Below the pieces are notes generated by a model. It ran no database searches. It was not told the DNA's origin and worked only from the letters and a program-made list of their open reading frames with translations. Shown one piece after another: positions 2,084 through 54,743 of a stretch of 64,000 nucleotides of DNA. The stretch is taken from NCBI GenBank assembly GCA_965203195.1, contig OZ241860.1, positions 1,555,362 through 1,619,361 of the forward strand, written 5' to 3'. The stretch's first letter is position 1. Each line of letters starts with the position of its first letter. The stretch comes from Dehalococcoidia bacterium. GTDB lineage: Bacteria; Chloroflexota; Dehalococcoidia; Lucifugimonadales; UBA3495. The position numbers and the translations under genes are program-made.

Positions 2084-2159
2084 TGGCGCGCCTGGCAGGA
2101 CTCGAACCCGCAACCTCTGGGTCCGAAGCCCAGTGCTCTGTCCATTGAGCTACAGGCGC
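2084..2159 (-). tRNA. tRNA-Arg (anticodon TCG)
   Basis: Reverse complement GCGCCTGTAGCTCAATGGACAGAGCACTGGGCTTCGGACCCAGAGGTTGCGGGTTCGAGTCCTGCCAGGCGCGCCA folds as a cloverleaf. Anticodon loop CTTCGGA. CCA is encoded. Confidence 0.9.
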
Positions 2160-2290: not shown

Positions 2291-2368
2291 TGGGGCGAGC
2301 AACGGGATTCGAACCCGTGATCTCCTGTGCCACAGACAGGCGCCTTAGACCACTTGGCTATGCTCGCC
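2291..2368 (-). tRNA. tRNA-His (anticodon GTG) with encoded G-1 and CCA
   Basis: Reverse complement GGCGAGCATAGCCAAGTGGTCTAAGGCGCCTGTCTGTGGCACAGGAGATCACGGGTTCGAATCCCGTTGCTCGCCCCA. Anticodon loop CTGTGGC. The extra 5' G pairs with C73. Confidence 0.9.
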
Positions 2369-4468: not shown

Positions 4469-4559
4469 GGAGAGATGGCCGAGTGGTTGAAGGCGCCGGT
4501 CTCGAAAACCGGTATGCGTCTCTGGCGCATCGCGGGTTCGAATCCCGCTCTCTCCGCCA
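4469..4559 (+). tRNA. tRNA-Ser (anticodon CGA), class II with long variable arm
   Basis: GGAGAGATGGCCGAGTGGTTGAAGGCGCCGGTCTCGAAAACCGGTATGCGTCTCTGGCGCATCGCGGGTTCGAATCCCGCTCTCTCCGCCA. Anticodon loop CTCGAAA. Confidence 0.9.
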
Positions 4560-27460: not shown

Positions 27461-27534
27461 ACCGGCGTGGTGTAATGGTAACGCATCGGTCTCCAAAACC
27501 GAAAATGTGGGTTCGATCCCTGCCGCCGGTGCCA
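27461..27534 (+). tRNA. tRNA-Trp (anticodon CCA)
   Basis: ACCGGCGTGGTGTAATGGTAACGCATCGGTCTCCAAAACCGAAAATGTGGGTTCGATCCCTGCCGCCGGTGCCA. Anticodon loop CTCCAAA. Confidence 0.85.
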
Positions 27535-46213: not shown

Positions 46214-46672
46214 TTGCCGCTGGTAGGAGTAATAATGGGCAGCGCGTCCGATGAAGCGGCGGTGCAGCCCACGCTGGATACGCTGGAATCGCTGGGGATT
46301 GAGTACGAAGTGCGGGTGATGTCCGCGCACCGGACGCCGGAGCGGGTACACGAGTACGCCGCCACCGCTTCGGAGCGGGGCTTGGAGGTGCTGATCGCGG
46401 CGGCCGGGGGTTCGGCGGCGCTGGGGGGGGCGCTGGCGGCGCAGACGATACTGCCGGTCATCGGCATACCGCTGACTTCCAGCGAGCTGAACGGCTGGGA
46501 TGCGCTGTTGTCCACAGCGCAGATGCCGCCGGGGATTCCGGTGGGGGCGATGGCCGTGGGCAGCTGGGGGGCGCGGAACGCCGCCTACTATGCGGCGCAG
46601 ATTCTGGCGATCAAGCATGATGGCATCCGCGTCGCGGTGGCCCAGTACCGGCAGTCGCTCCGTGAGCGCTAA
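46214..46672 (+). CDS. purE: 5-(carboxyamino)imidazole ribonucleotide mutase
   Basis: VGVIMGSASD, RVMSAHRTP, IAAAGGSAALGG, PVIGIP. TTG start after AAGGAG. Confidence 0.9.
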   Translation: MPLVGVIMGSASDEAAVQPTLDTLESLGIEYEVRVMSAHRTPERVHEYAATASERGLEVLIAAAGGSAALGGALAAQTILPVIGIPLTSSELNGWDALLSTAQMPPGIPVGAMAVGSWGARNAAYYAAQILAIKHDGIRVAVAQYRQSLRER

Positions 46673-47405
46673 CGCTAGTTCCAGCCCTGACCCCGCCGCT
46701 GCCCCCGGCGTAGGCAGTGGCGGCGGGGCGGGGCGTCTGCCGGCGGCGCTGACGGATTTTGATGACACCGCCGCCGTTCAGAATGTGGCGGAGCTGCTCC
46801 TGCATCGTTTCGGGCATCCCCGGTGGCAGGAGGTGCGGCAGCGGTTTCGGGCGGGCGAATTGTCCCTCAAGGATTACCAGGAAATTACCTTCCGGCAGAT
46901 GCGGGCGGGGAAGGCTGAGATGGAGGCGTATGTGCGCGCCAACGCCGGTTTCCGGCCCGGTTTTGTGGACTTATGCGAGTTCTGCCGGGGGAATGGCATT
47001 CCGCTGGCCATCGTGAGCCAGGGGCTGGATTTTTATGTCCAGGCTTTGTTGGACGCCAGCGGGCAATCGGATGTGCCGGTGTATGCGGTAACTACCCGGT
47101 TTGATGAGGCGGGGCGGATTGCCGGGTACGGCTATGATTTTCCGTATCCCGAGGCGCCGGAGCGGGGCAACAGCAAGGCGCTGCTGGTGCGGCGTTTCCA
47201 GCAGCGGGGGCATTATGTTTTTTATGCGGGCGACGGGCGTTCCGATTTTGAGGCCGGGGAGGTAGCGGATGCGGTGTTCGCCCACCGGCAGATGGCGGAG
47301 CTGTGCGATGCCGGCGGGGTTGCTTATATTCCGTTCACCGATTTTGTTCCGGTGCTGGCGGCGGTGCGGGAGTATTATGGGGGCATAGGGCGGGCGGCGG
47401 GTTAG
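46662..47405 (+). CDS. HAD-IB family hydrolase (MtnX-like phosphatase)
   Basis: ORF 46500..47405. DFDDT (motif I), IVSQG, YAGDGRSD (motif III). GTG start at 46662 overlaps the purE stop; the start is uncertain. Confidence 0.65.
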   Translation: MSANASSSPDPAAAPGVGSGGGAGRLPAALTDFDDTAAVQNVAELLLHRFGHPRWQEVRQRFRAGELSLKDYQEITFRQMRAGKAEMEAYVRANAGFRPGFVDLCEFCRGNGIPLAIVSQGLDFYVQALLDASGQSDVPVYAVTTRFDEAGRIAGYGYDFPYPEAPERGNSKALLVRRFQQRGHYVFYAGDGRSDFEAGEVADAVFAHRQMAELCDAGGVAYIPFTDFVPVLAAVREYYGGIGRAAG

Positions 47406-47618
47406 GGGGGCGGGGTCGGGGCGCCAGGTTGCGCCGGCGTTTTGCTGACGCCGGAGCCAGGTTTCCCATTCGCGTTGCCTTTCGGCCCGGCCTTCGGCCC
47501 AGCCCTCGACCCAGCCTTCGACCCAGCCTTCGACCCAGCCCTGGGCGAAGCCGGTGCGGTGGCGCTCGTTGAGGAGGGGGCGTATGGCGAATTGCAGGGC
47601 TTTTTGCGCTATGGACAT
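47406..47618 (-). pseudogene. Small-protein cassette A, the distal copy with an altered C-terminus and no family stop
   Basis: MSIAQKALQFAIRPLLNERHRTGFAQGWVEGWVEGWVEGWAEGRAERQREWETWLRRQQNAGATW, then RPDPAP... reading antisense into the HAD gene. Confidence 0.5.
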
Positions 47619-47678
47619 AGATCGCCTTCCTCCGTCATCCAGTGTTACGGTAAGGGTCAAGCGCGGCTGCTGTGGTGA

Positions 47679-47888
47679 CTATTGCGCCTCGGGTTTGGTT
47701 GTATCGCCGGGCGGCGGGTCGTCGGGGGGCCAGGTTGTGCCGGCGTCCTGCCGCCGCTGTAGCCAGGTTTCCCACTCGTTTTGCGTTTCGACTTGGCCTT
47801 CGACACGGCCCTGGGCGAAGCCGGTGCGGTGGCGCTCGTTGAGGAGGGGGCGTATGGCGAATTGCAGGGCTTTTTGCGCTATGGACAT
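47679..47888 (-). CDS. Small protein cassette B (69 aa)
   Basis: MSIAQKALQFAIRPLLNERHRTGFAQGRVEGQVETQNEWETWLQRRQDAGTTWPPDDPPPGDTTKPEAQ. GGAGG about 10 nt upstream. Confidence 0.55.
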   Translation of the reverse strand: MSIAQKALQFAIRPLLNERHRTGFAQGRVEGQVETQNEWETWLQRRQDAGTTWPPDDPPPGDTTKPEAQ

Positions 47889-47947
47889 AATCGCCTGCCT
47901 CCGTCGTCCGGTATTGCTGTAAGGGCCAAGCGCGGCCGCCGTGGTGG

Positions 47948-48157
47948 CTATTGCGCCTCCGGTTTGGTTGTATCGCCGGGCGGCGGGTCGTCGGGGGGCC
48001 AGGTTGCGCCGGCGTCCTGCCGCCGCTGTAGCCAGGTTTCCCACTCGTTTTGCGTTTCGACTTGGCCTTCGACACGGCCTTCGGCGAAGCCGGTGCGGTG
48101 GCGCTCGTTGAGGAGGGGGCGTATGGCGAATTGCAGGGCTTTTTGCGCTATGGACAT
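47948..48157 (-). CDS. Small protein cassette C (69 aa)
   Basis: Same as B with 2 substitutions. Has its own GGAGG. Confidence 0.55.
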   Translation of the reverse strand: MSIAQKALQFAIRPLLNERHRTGFAEGRVEGQVETQNEWETWLQRRQDAGATWPPDDPPPGDTTKPEAQ

Positions 48158-48216
48158 AGCTCGCTTGCCTCCGTCATCCAGGATTACGATAAGGGCCAGC
48201 GCGGTGGCCGTGGTGA

Positions 48217-48783
48217 CTATTGCGCCTCGGGTTTGGTTGTATCGCCGGGCGGCGGGTCGTCGGGGGGCCAGGTTGCGCCGGCGTTCTGCTGGCGGCGCAG
48301 CCAGGTTTCCCACTCGTTTTGCGTTTCGGCACGGCCTTCTACCTTGCCCTCAACCCGGCCCTCAACTTGGCCCTCAATCCGACCTTCGACCCAGCCGTCG
48401 ACGCGGCCCTGGGCGAAGCCGGTGCGGTGGCGCTCGTTGAGGAGGGGGCGTATGGCGAATTGCAGGGCTTTTTGCGCTATGGACATGGCTCGCTTGCCTC
48501 CGTCATCCAGGATTACGATAAGGGCCAGCGCGGTGGCTGCGGCGGCTGGCGATGCTACGCCCCGGCCGATTTGGGCGGCCAGCAGGGCGCTTACTCCGGC
48601 GGCGGTTTCGCCCAGCAGCCCGCTGACGGCCATTGCCTCCAACAGGGTTATCGCCGCCAGGGCGATTTTGACGCCGGCCAAGCCCGGCGCCGCCAGCCGC
48701 AGAAACGCGCCCCAAAAGCCGCGCCGTTCCGGCCGGGCAGCCTCGCGGGTGAGCAGTTCGCTGATTTTTGTTGCCAGGCCCAT
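48217..48783 (-). CDS. Full-length member of the array: hydrophobic N-terminal 99 aa fused in frame to cassette D
   Basis: 188 aa. Two predicted TM stretches, then MSIAQ... with an expanded (x-V-E/D-G) repeat region. An internal GGAGG plus ATG at 48486 could also give a 89-aa product. Confidence 0.55.
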   Translation of the reverse strand: MGLATKISELLTREAARPERRGFWGAFLRLAAPGLAGVKIALAAITLLEAMAVSGLLGETAAGVSALLAAQIGRGVASPAAAATALALIVILDDGGKRAMSIAQKALQFAIRPLLNERHRTGFAQGRVDGWVEGRIEGQVEGRVEGKVEGRAETQNEWETWLRRQQNAGATWPPDDPPPGDTTKPEAQ

Positions 48784-49042
48784 CCAGTAAGACCTGCGCC
48801 GATTATACCACTTTCGCCCGTCGCCCGTTGGCTTTCACAACCGGATAACCGCCGGATAATTGGAAACGCGGGCCGGCCGCGCCAGGGGAATCGCCCCGCC
48901 GGCGATAGCCCTGGCCGGCGGGGCGCTGTCCCTTGACACTTTTGCCGCTATGGGGTATAGATTTTTAATGCGCCGGCTGGGGGCGTCTTTGGTCCGGCGG
49001 CCACCTTACACCGGACGCCGTCATTGGGAGCGATGCAGCAAG

Positions 49043-49582
49043 ATGCGTGAACTGGTAATTGACAGCATCCGGATCAGCCAGATGAACTACCAGCGGGTGG
49101 TGGTGCTCAAAGAGCTGGAGACCAACCTGTTCCTGCTCATCTGGATTGGCCCCACCGAGGCGGAGGCCATCGCGGTCAAAATGCAGGGCATGACCGTGCC
49201 CCGCCCGCTAACCCACGACCTGCTGGTGGACCTGGTGAAGTCCGTCGGCGGCTCGTTTCAGCACATCCTAGTCAACGACCTGGAGAACGAAACCTTCTAC
49301 GCCAAAATCGTCATCCGCGTTGGCGACCGCACCCACGAAATTGATTCCCGTCCCAGCGACGCCATGGCGGTGGCCGTCCGCGCCGAGGTGCCGATCTATG
49401 TGGCCGACCGGGTAATGGACAAGGCGGGCATCTCTATGGACGAGGAAACGGGCCAGCCCAAGCCCCCCCCGTCCAGCGGGGAATCGGCTCCCGCGGAGGT
49501 CACCGAGGAGGAGTTGCAGCGGCTGTCGGCCTTTACCGACCTGATCAACGAGCTGGATATGGAGGATTTCGAGCGCCGGTAG
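49043..49582 (+). CDS. Bifunctional nuclease family protein (DUF151/BFN)
   Basis: ORF 48860..49582. Start at MRELVIDS (49043). GPTEAEAI, RPLTHDLL, IDSRPSDAMAVAVR. Confidence 0.8.
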   Translation: MRELVIDSIRISQMNYQRVVVLKELETNLFLLIWIGPTEAEAIAVKMQGMTVPRPLTHDLLVDLVKSVGGSFQHILVNDLENETFYAKIVIRVGDRTHEIDSRPSDAMAVAVRAEVPIYVADRVMDKAGISMDEETGQPKPPPSSGESAPAEVTEEELQRLSAFTDLINELDMEDFERR

Positions 49583-53400: not shown

Positions 53401-53979
53401 ATGGCAATGACATCCGGGCCCGGATTTACGCTGCTGGCCGCCAGAGTGCTGGCCGCGGCGTTGCGGTTCGTCGGCAAAGCGCTGTCGCCGCCGGATGACG
53501 GGGAGGAGCCGAGGTATGACCTGCTCAGCATCCGCAAGGGCGATTTTAAGGTATTCTACCGGCTGGCGTCCATTCTCTGGGCGGCGGCGCTGGCCCACTA
53601 CGGACGCCGGACGGTAGCGGGCAACCCGCCGGGGCCGGCGGGCTACACCGGGGAATATCTGGCCGAGGTAGCGGCGCAAACCGTGGCCGAGTTCCAGGGG
53701 GTTGCCATTGGGCTGGCGATAATCGCGCTGATGGCGACGCCCTTGGTTGCCTACACCGGGAGGAGAATGATGGCTATTGCCGAAATCATCCACAAGAAGT
53801 GGGTGGAACCTATACTTGCCGACAACTACAACCGGGGGCGGGTTGAGGGGTTGGTTGAGGGCCGGGTTGAGGGGGTGTCCGATGCTGACCAGGAATGGGA
53901 AGCGTGGCTGACCCGGCGCGAGATTGCGGTTGCCAATGGCGAGCCTTTTGACGAACCGCCGCCGAGCCGCCGTCGTTAG
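53401..53979 (+). CDS. Full-length member of the second small-protein module array (membrane-anchored)
   Basis: 192 aa. TM GVAIGLAIIALMATPLVAY, then an internal GGGAGGAGA plus ATG at 53767 preceding MMAIAEIIHKKWVEPILADNYNRGRVEGLVEGRVEG...QEWEAWLTRRE...GEPFDEPPPSRRR. Confidence 0.6.
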   Translation: MAMTSGPGFTLLAARVLAAALRFVGKALSPPDDGEEPRYDLLSIRKGDFKVFYRLASILWAAALAHYGRRTVAGNPPGPAGYTGEYLAEVAAQTVAEFQGVAIGLAIIALMATPLVAYTGRRMMAIAEIIHKKWVEPILADNYNRGRVEGLVEGRVEGVSDADQEWEAWLTRREIAVANGEPFDEPPPSRRR

Positions 53980-54014
53980 GTGGCAGAACGCCGGGCAGCC
54001 ATACCGGGACGGGG

Positions 54015-54299
54015 GTGGCGCAGACCGTGGCCGCATTCCAGGTGGTTGCCATCGGACGGGCGGTTATCTCGCTGATGGCGACGCCCTTGGTCGCCTACAC
54101 CGGGAGGAAAATGATGGCTATTGCCGAAATCATTCACAAGAAGTGGGTGGAACCTATACTTGCCGACAACTACAACAGGGGGCGGGTTGAGGGGTTCTCC
54201 AATGCCGACCGGGAGTGGGAGGCGTGGCTGACCAGGCGGGATGCCGCCATTGCCAATGGCGAGCCTTTTGACGAACCGCCGCCGAGCCGCCGTCGCTAG
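54015..54299 (+). CDS. Partial duplicate of 53401..53979 (TM plus small-protein module)
   Basis: 94 aa with GTG start. The internal SD plus ATG at 54111 gives MMAIAEIIHKKWVEPILADNYNRGRVEGFSNADREWEAWLTRRD...PFDEPPPSRRR. Confidence 0.5.
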   Translation: MAQTVAAFQVVAIGRAVISLMATPLVAYTGRKMMAIAEIIHKKWVEPILADNYNRGRVEGFSNADREWEAWLTRRDAAIANGEPFDEPPPSRRR

Positions 54300-54340
54300 G
54301 TGGCAGAACGCCGGGCGGCAATACCTAGACGATGCGGCGG

Positions 54341-54468
54341 GCGCAGACCGTGGCCGCGTTCCAGGGGGTTGCCATCGGGCGGGCGATTGTCGCGCTGGTG
54401 GCGACGCCCTTTGTCGCCTACACCGGAAGGGAATGATGGCTATTGCCGAAATCATCCACAAAAAGTAG
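54341..54468 (+). pseudogene. Third, degenerate copy of the module
   Basis: A 1-nt deletion before the internal ATG (54433), and a premature TAG at 54466 where TGG is expected (KKW becomes KK-stop). Confidence 0.6.
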
Positions 54469-54743
54469 GATGAACCTATTCTTGCCGACAACTACCAGTT
54501 GCAGCTGCCGGCGGCGATACCGGCATGGGCAGAGACACTATGCGAGTAACCCGTCGGGCTGACGGAAACACTGCGACTTATCGACAGAACGGGGTTCCAA
54601 CCCGTCGCAGCGGATGGCTCCGGGCGGCGCCGGAGGTAGATGAAGGCACTGGCGCATAGAGGCGCGCCGCGCAGCGGATGGCTCCATACCCTATCGGCAT
54701 GGTGGCGCGTCGGATGCCGGCGCGGCGCCGGGCGGCGGGCAGC

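Follow-up and report, generated by a model that had tools for sequence, protein, structure and literature searches.

Candidate long/short protein pairs with Rpn-like architecture in an unnamed family of predicted membrane proteins

Two arrays of a long gene and partial copies of its 3' part

The stretch of DNA analysed here, referred to as the window, comprises 64,000 nucleotides from a Dehalococcoidia bacterium (assembly GCA_965203195.1, contig OZ241860.1, positions 1,555,362 to 1,619,361 of the forward strand). Its minus strand carries a 188-codon gene (48783..48217), which encodes the long form L and is followed by three partial copies of its own 3' part, each 269-270 bp in length. We call these copies cassettes C, B and A, and the corresponding part of the long gene copy D. 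Tandem Repeats Finder reports a period of 269 nt with 3.0 copies and 92% matches at 47526-48339, together with 12-nt sub-repeats in each unit. The module common to the four head-to-tail units begins with ATGs at 48486 (within the 188-aa open reading frame, ORF), 48157, 47888 and 47618 of the minus strand, and a GGAGG ends 10 nt before each of them. All four translations contain MSIAQKALQFAIRPLLNERHRTGFA, then a run of x-V-E-G and then EWETWL...DDPPPG. Repeat finding and translations thus confirm this layout as it was originally predicted from the sequence, including the in-frame position of copy D behind a 99-codon hydrophobic N-terminal extension.

The distance between the N-part of the module and the W-E-x-W motif is 102 nt in D, 42 nt in both C and B, and 78 nt in A, all differences being multiples of 12. 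The first 72 nt of the module are 100% identical in all four copies, and the flanks differ. Neighbouring units lie in different reading frames, since 269 equals 2 modulo 3. The duplication boundary is found approximately 50-60 nt before each ATG, within the code for the last hydrophobic helix of the long protein. Judged by their sequence, the units of the array are incomplete duplicates of a full-length gene, of which they repeat the 3' part.

The long form L (188 aa; 48217..48783, minus strand) consists of an N-terminal amphipathic segment, two hydrophobic segments and the short module, which contains six xVEG repeats, W-E-T-W-L and DDPPPG. Its putative internal translation-initiation signal (48484..48501, minus strand) is composed of GGAGG (48501..48497), a 10-nt spacer and ATG (48486..48484). 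An extended -10-like box, TGGTATAAT, is located at 48802..48810 of the same strand, 18 nt before the long-form ATG, with no Shine-Dalgarno sequence (SD) between them. Cassettes C (47948..48157, minus strand) and B (47679..47888, minus strand) are intact 69-aa ORFs for a short form, S, each with its own GGAGG; B is one synonymous site away from the module of the long gene at L001, a closely related locus.

The terminal cassette A (47406..47618, minus strand) is a decayed copy that contains four W(V/A)EG repeats and has its orthologue in the only cassette of L001. As had been noticed originally, it lacks the family C-terminus and stop where the array abuts a convergent HAD phosphatase gene (46500..47405, plus strand). 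Compared with another related locus, L013, a 20-nt deletion has removed DPPPG together with the stop and has shifted the frame past the ancestral TAA, which, as in L013, overlaps the HAD stop codon. The frame of cassette A runs antisense to the HAD gene over about 145 codons and meets no stop until 46971. If it were translated from its intact SD and ATG, ribosomes would enter the transcript region of the convergent gene. ORFs antisense to the array, on the plus strand, were also considered as real genes and were dropped: the conserved protein, the 12-nt indels and a ratio of nonsynonymous to synonymous differences (pN/pS) below 1 all fit the minus-strand frame.

A motif scan of the whole window revealed a second locus of the same design at 53401..54520 of the plus strand, which the first reading of the sequence had not reported. 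Its long gene (53401..53979) encodes a paralogous long form of 192 aa, L2, with an internal GGGAGG before ATGATG at 53767 and, immediately ahead of the module, a hydrophobic segment that stands out much more clearly (peak 2.09). The L2 module, MMAIAEIIHKKWVEPIL...GRVEG...EWEAWL...PFDEPPP, bears only a distant resemblance to the module of the first locus. An intact short-form cassette follows at 54111..54299, with one GRVEG unit as against three in L2. The duplicated helix of this cassette has gained an Arg in its hydrophobic core, and the module behind it is unchanged. A second, decayed cassette at 54433..54520 meets an in-frame stop after 11 codons. In L007, a relative of the L2 locus, the same pair of long gene and cassette is found with approximately 11 and 10 repeat units. 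The anatomy of the array is thus well established. The design occurs twice in the window, and as far as the sequences tell it is family-wide and more general than was first suggested.

An unnamed family with recurrent cassettes

The 188-aa product was used as query in a search of 5.8 billion proteins. Fifteen relatives of the long form were retrieved (149-189 aa, 54-96% identity), all of them from metagenome assemblies. Query coverage is 90-100% in 14 of the 15, and the remaining one, the 149-aa P0015, covers 64%. No Pfam domain was detected in any of them, and the only match among GTDB species representatives is to a Dehalococcoidia metagenome-assembled genome. All homologues align from residue 1. 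Indels occur only in a single N-terminal loop and in the four-residue units, whose number ranges from about one to six or seven in this group (subfamily 1). Since homologues align from the first residue with indels so confined, the methionine of MSIAQ is evidently an internal, invariant residue of a protein of about 170 aa. The long form (160-190 aa) is, by the same comparison, a real and conserved unnamed protein, known mainly from metagenomes.

The N-terminal 99 residues of L contain two hydrophobic stretches with Kyte-Doolittle peaks of 1.8-2.0, and more distant family members contain unambiguous hydrophobic segments with peaks of 2.1-2.7. The original prediction had proposed profile searches and structure prediction for the module. 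For the proteins of the window, the former gave only sub-threshold matches to glycine repeats; in the latter, AlphaFold2 models the module as one helix (residues 3-49) followed by a disordered proline-rich tail, with a predicted local distance difference test score (pLDDT) of 62.

A HMMER pass over 1.84 billion cluster representatives yielded 65 family proteins, and a scan seeded with a narrower alignment gave 6 loci. The 65 proteins follow a common plan, in which an acidic/Trp motif, two hydrophobic segments and the conserved Met are followed by a helix, (G-R-x-E)n and a C-terminal end of the type W-x-x-W-(L/N)-x-R-R...G-x-P-F-(D/N)-E-P-P-P. At least 18 of these representatives are gene calls of 50-100 aa that start at the conserved Met, and several of them are plainly tails of longer matches. 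Where the source names a member at all, the name is "hypothetical protein"; most members carry none.

Genomic context was examined in subfamily 1 at seven loci on long contigs (L001-L006 and the window). One to three partial copies of the 3' part follow the long gene at all seven, and at six of them the cassettes are in turn followed by the convergent HAD gene and purE. Loci with cassettes reach down to 57% protein identity, and 7 of the 10 cassettes are intact ORFs. Two further loci lie on short-read scaffolds: L012 starts a cassette before the contig ends, and L013 shows no cassette, in a type of assembly that may collapse such repeats. The layout of long gene and cassette was also detected in three further subfamilies (L014, L015/L016 and L019), and on this evidence it is present in at least five sequence-divergent subfamilies. 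The survey of related genomes that the original prediction had suggested thus bore out the recurrence of the arrays.

Some long genes appear interrupted. At L014 (2588..3246) the long gene is split over three frames, which hold the N-terminal motif, the hydrophobic part and the module, respectively, and it is followed by two short-form ORFs that are intact. Either the sequence contains an error here, or L has decayed and S has been kept. The long forms P0080, P0024, P0094 and P0098 are truncated or frameshifted after the hydrophobic part or within the module, which may reflect assembly artefacts at repeats or real inactivation of L.

Internal start signal and constraint on the cassettes

In subfamily 1, GA(Y) GGA GGN NNN CGN GCN ATG TCN ATA is present in each of the seven long genes and ten cassettes, and the GGA and ATA codons are invariant in the 17 copies. 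In flanking genes of the same contigs, GGA makes up 1-12% of Gly codons and ATA 4-8% of Ile codons. In the other subfamilies GGAG(G) is found 6-11 nt before the start codon, which at the L2 locus is the second of two tandem ATGs; the signal is encoded there by different residues and in different frames: DGG, TGRR, TGV, TEA, KGG and IGG. Given a GGAG frequency of about 0.005 per nt, such a placement in six lineages has a joint probability of approximately 4e-9. Because the rare codons are invariant and different residues encode the signal elsewhere, the internal SD and ATG appear to be under selection at the nucleotide level. Single-copy genes of the family keep the signal too, which suggests that across the whole family the long mRNA probably also gives rise to the short form.

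The start of the long gene looks different. A TGnTATAAT or GGTATAAT box lies 16-20 nt before the long-form ATG at all seven loci, again with no SD between. A formal sigma-70 scan found no full promoter match, and terminator matches were at chance level and on the wrong strand. The position of the box suggests a very short leader for L, in contrast to the strong internal SD. Since the box is so close to the L ATG and no SD intervenes, we infer weaker translation of L than of S.

Thirteen cassettes were then each compared with their own long gene. Over the 48 nt before the SD, which in L code for the last hydrophobic helix, identity is 85% and frame-breaking indels occur in seven cases. Over the first 24 codons after the ATG, identity is 97% and no indel is present (Fisher p = 7e-17). 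Constraint on the cassettes begins abruptly at the SD/ATG. Orthologous cassettes of L002, L003 and L005 give pN/pS of 0.27-0.34, with small counts, and cassettes of L003, L005 and P0017 have derived residues in common (EWEEWL, IDL) and open frames. The idea of a multi-copy small-protein array, one of two offered in the original prediction, is best supported by these observations: the cassettes have their own SD, ATG and stop, and constraint sets in at the start.

Comparison with Rpn and alternative explanations

The original prediction had pointed to internally initiated small proteins of the Rpn family, and the published work bears this out and is closer to the present case than had been realised. 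RpnS is translated from an internal site, and its binding to RpnL has been proven experimentally (Zhong et al. 2023 PNAS; PMC10400941). The dimerising helix of these proteins contains four-amino-acid repeats that vary between strains; S is specific for L of equal repeat number, and mismatched S fails to neutralise it. Additional downstream copies, rpnSs, group with their own upstream gene and are lost by fusion. The authors predicted that many more such genes-within-genes exist (PMC10400941).

The likeness to the loci described here extends over several features. In both cases long and short proteins have a common C-terminus, the short one arising (here by prediction) from an internal SD and ATG, with MTIAE as start motif in E. 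coli RpnAS and MSIAQ or MAIAE in our family. A helix with 12-bp repeats follows, whose number varies between close relatives; the repeats begin about 26 residues after the Met here and 8-20 residues after it in Rpn. Short-form genes lie directly downstream of some long genes and group with their own upstream gene, and copies are lost by fusion of the N-terminal domain to a downstream copy. In contrast to Rpn, our family has a hydrophobic hairpin at the N-terminus and not a PD-(D/E)xK nuclease. The model of its short form shows one helix with a proline-rich tail, where Rpn has the three-helix DUF4351 bundle, and synteny is of a stable housekeeping type, whereas Rpn is found in mobile or defence contexts. 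Arrays of up to three cassettes occur in our family.

Beyond the glycine repeat, no sequence or profile similarity connects the two families. Proteins of the window match neither PDDEXK_Tnp_1 nor DUF4351 in Pfam, in agreement with the original statement that no Rpn nuclease domain is present. TIGR01784 (NCBIfam) was matched only once, with E = 0.039, over the repeat region of a distant member. Comparison of the module profile with the RpnA tail by hhalign gave a probability of 0.2%, and profile searches of the PDB with full-length and module alignments retrieved no match, RpnAS included. The original likening to Rpn tails does not extend to homology; the resemblance is, as judged from these comparisons, architectural.

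Two other families share with ours a G-x-x-x run on one helix, and only this repeat. In the deca-GX3 proteins Yae1 and Lto1 the run mediates pairing of the two proteins (PMC4523923), and FliH differs widely among species in its number of units (PMC2674601). Against L of the window, Yae1_N (PF09811) scores 11.6 bits with a cut-off of 27.5, and FliH models score 14-23 bits with cut-offs of 180-293. The one protein to exceed the Yae1_N cut-off is P0026 (34.3 bits), which has about 10 repeats and owes its score to these alone. No FliH C-terminal domain and no flagellar or Fe-S context was seen here, and neither Yae1/Lto1 nor FliH/YscL has the long/short layout. The lambda holin and antiholin, S105 and S107, offer a further parallel, namely two opposing products of one small membrane-protein gene with alternative starts. 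Both lambda products keep all membrane segments and differ by two residues, whereas the short form here has no hydrophobic part; phage context is likewise missing from our loci.

We propose that this locus specifies two proteins of an uncharacterised family, one long and one short, together with stand-alone short copies, a reading whose prospects we judge to be evenly balanced. L (about 160-190 aa) would be a hairpin protein that inserts into the membrane, with a tail formed by one long helix: a conserved N-part, the variable G-x-x-x (xVEG) run and W-x-x-W, before a proline-rich end. S (about 60-90 aa) would be this tail alone, made from the conserved internal SD and ATG within the L gene and from the one to three 3' duplicates directly downstream, which are probably co-transcribed with L. 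Through its glycine-repeat face it might bind the identical helix in L, or it might compete for a partner that binds the tail, and it would thereby titrate or silence L. Cassette and repeat number would change by homologous recombination and slippage, and recombination could swap a cassette module onto the membrane anchor.

Taken together, the conserved internal start, variable repeat helix, tandem short copies and their fusion or loss amount to an Rpn-type architecture in an unrelated protein family. That this unnamed hairpin membrane-protein family reached the Rpn design independently, as a membrane-targeting toxin with its antitoxin or as a self-titrating regulator, is a tentative suggestion that we hold to be somewhat improbable. 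In the literature searched, genes-within-genes that encode a modulator of the longer product are experimentally documented only for Rpn. If the short forms are translated and bind L, the architecture would be a convergent design principle and not a peculiarity of Rpn, and "hypothetical proteins" of poorly studied genomes such as those of Chloroflexota would gain a testable mechanism. There is also a lesson for annotation. Gene callers already split such loci into small ORFs that look unrelated, and short-read assemblies break or collapse at them.

Several observations weigh against the proposed pair. The genomic context consists of stable housekeeping genes (purine biosynthesis) and contains no defence island, and no match was found in PADLOC or in phage, plasmid or viral collections (tblastn and two scans of viral contigs). 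Nothing useful came from a PHROGs scan of the long and short forms with ten distant members, or from a scan of Joint Genome Institute metagenomes with the full-length alignment. Hydrophobicity of the subfamily-1 N-terminus (1.7-2.0) is borderline for membrane spans, and AlphaFold2 confidence is low (pLDDT of 43 for L, 62 for the module). Cassette and own L differ in repeat number at each of the loci examined; this counts against pairing because mismatched S fails to neutralise L in Rpn. Cassettes are not always maintained, since terminal copies are decayed in the window (A), in L004, in L006 (its second) and, as the last one, at the paralogous locus, and the distant members L008, L009, L010, L017 and L018 are single genes without a cassette. 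Finally, gene conversion from L could produce low pN/pS and identical N-parts with no selection acting on the cassettes, and the 72-nt N-part that is identical in all four window copies does point to conversion.

The same facts can be accommodated by cassettes that are neutral by-products: a repeat-rich 3' end would duplicate by unequal recombination or slippage, be homogenised by conversion and then decay, without ever having a function. Decayed terminal copies in four arrays, family members without a cassette and the conversion-like pattern of identical N-parts with differing flanks all agree with this, as does the variation of copy number among close relatives (3 cassettes in the window, 1 in L001, possibly 0 in L013). 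Such by-products leave unexplained, however, why the internal SD and ATG are conserved in long genes, single-copy ones included, by way of rare codons or different residues, why the duplicated segment always includes the internal start, and why identity and frame integrity change in a step exactly there. Nor do they account well for the L003, L005 and P0017 cassettes, which are still open with derived residues in common, or for the recurrence of the layout in at least five divergent subfamilies. We consider a purely neutral origin unlikely.

A special case of the long/short pair would be a toxin-antitoxin or abortive-infection system, with L as a membrane-damaging toxin, S as antitoxin and repeat number setting specificity. 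The architecture parallels RpnL, RpnS and RpnSs point for point, and in size the hydrophobic N-terminal hairpin resembles small membrane toxins or holins. The combination of L without SD and S with a strong SD would favour an excess of S, and some long genes appear disrupted (L014, P0080, P0024, P0094). On the other hand, scans of Pfam, NCBIfam, PADLOC and PHROGs found no homology to any known toxin, antitoxin or defence protein, and the family is absent from phage, plasmid and viral collections. Relatives down to 57% protein identity keep the locus at the same place among genes of purine biosynthesis, as if by vertical descent, and no cassette agrees with its own L in repeat number. This special case therefore seems doubtful to us.

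Comparison of close relatives bears on the second reading of the original prediction, according to which cassettes are mainly donors that replace the 3' module of the expressed long gene, similarly to pilE/pilS of Neisseria or vlsE of Borrelia. Those systems likewise have a complete expressed gene followed by partial 3' copies, and mosaic-like long genes occur here among close relatives. The window and L001 are colinear, with 94-96% nucleotide identity on both sides of the array, and the window has exactly two more units. With its module only a synonymous site from cassette B, the long gene of L001 resembles an L N-terminus joined to a B-type cassette, and the long genes P0001 and P0003 look like further mosaics of cassette-type segments. 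The identical 72-nt N-part and the conserved 3' end could serve as homology arms around the variable repeats. Judging from these alignments, recombination between units appears to have joined cassette modules to the membrane anchor since the close relatives diverged.

The donor reading is weakened by cassettes that are not silent: each has its own ribosome-binding site, start and, unless decayed, stop, and they lie in direct tandem and are probably co-transcribed. Diversity is minimal, being limited to repeat count and 2-4 residues, the variable part shows no sign of surface exposure, and the module is probably cytoplasmic, with no obvious selective agent. The simplest account would be that recombination in the identical N-part fuses the anchor to a downstream cassette or expands the array. 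Plain deletion or expansion of tandem units explains the mosaic long genes (L001, P0001, P0003) equally well; two of the contigs (L012, L013) are short-read scaffolds in which repeats may be collapsed. A locus that exists mainly for variation is, in our estimate, quite improbable.

Some features next to the arrays deserve mention. A gene with a BFN_dom (bifunctional-nuclease domain), annotated in the L001 context, is found at 48860..49582 of the plus strand, divergent from L and with a common upstream region. It was considered as a partner of L and dropped as probably not one, since this neighbour is not conserved in L002-L006, where purB takes its place. Among the loci viewed, the only defence-like neighbour is a CAP12-PCTIR TIR-domain gene (defence-associated), located about 1.5 kb from the single-copy member L009 (612..1493). 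An Rfam scan of the whole window detected only four tRNAs, at 2087..2159 and 2294..2367 (minus strand) and at 4469..4556 and 27461..27531 (plus strand), none of them near either array.

Every module ends, a few codons before its stop, with an invariant D/E-(D/E)-P-P-P-(G/S) motif. Its sites in the window are 48240..48260, 47970..47990 and 47700..47720 on the minus strand and 53950..53965 and 54270..54285 on the plus strand. A literature search for the FDEPPP tail motif returned only unrelated cytomegalovirus papers. Runs of three prolines flanked by acidic D/E residues are strong pause sites that depend on elongation factor P (EF-P), and the triple-proline end might affect protein dosage or the coupling to the cassette that follows.

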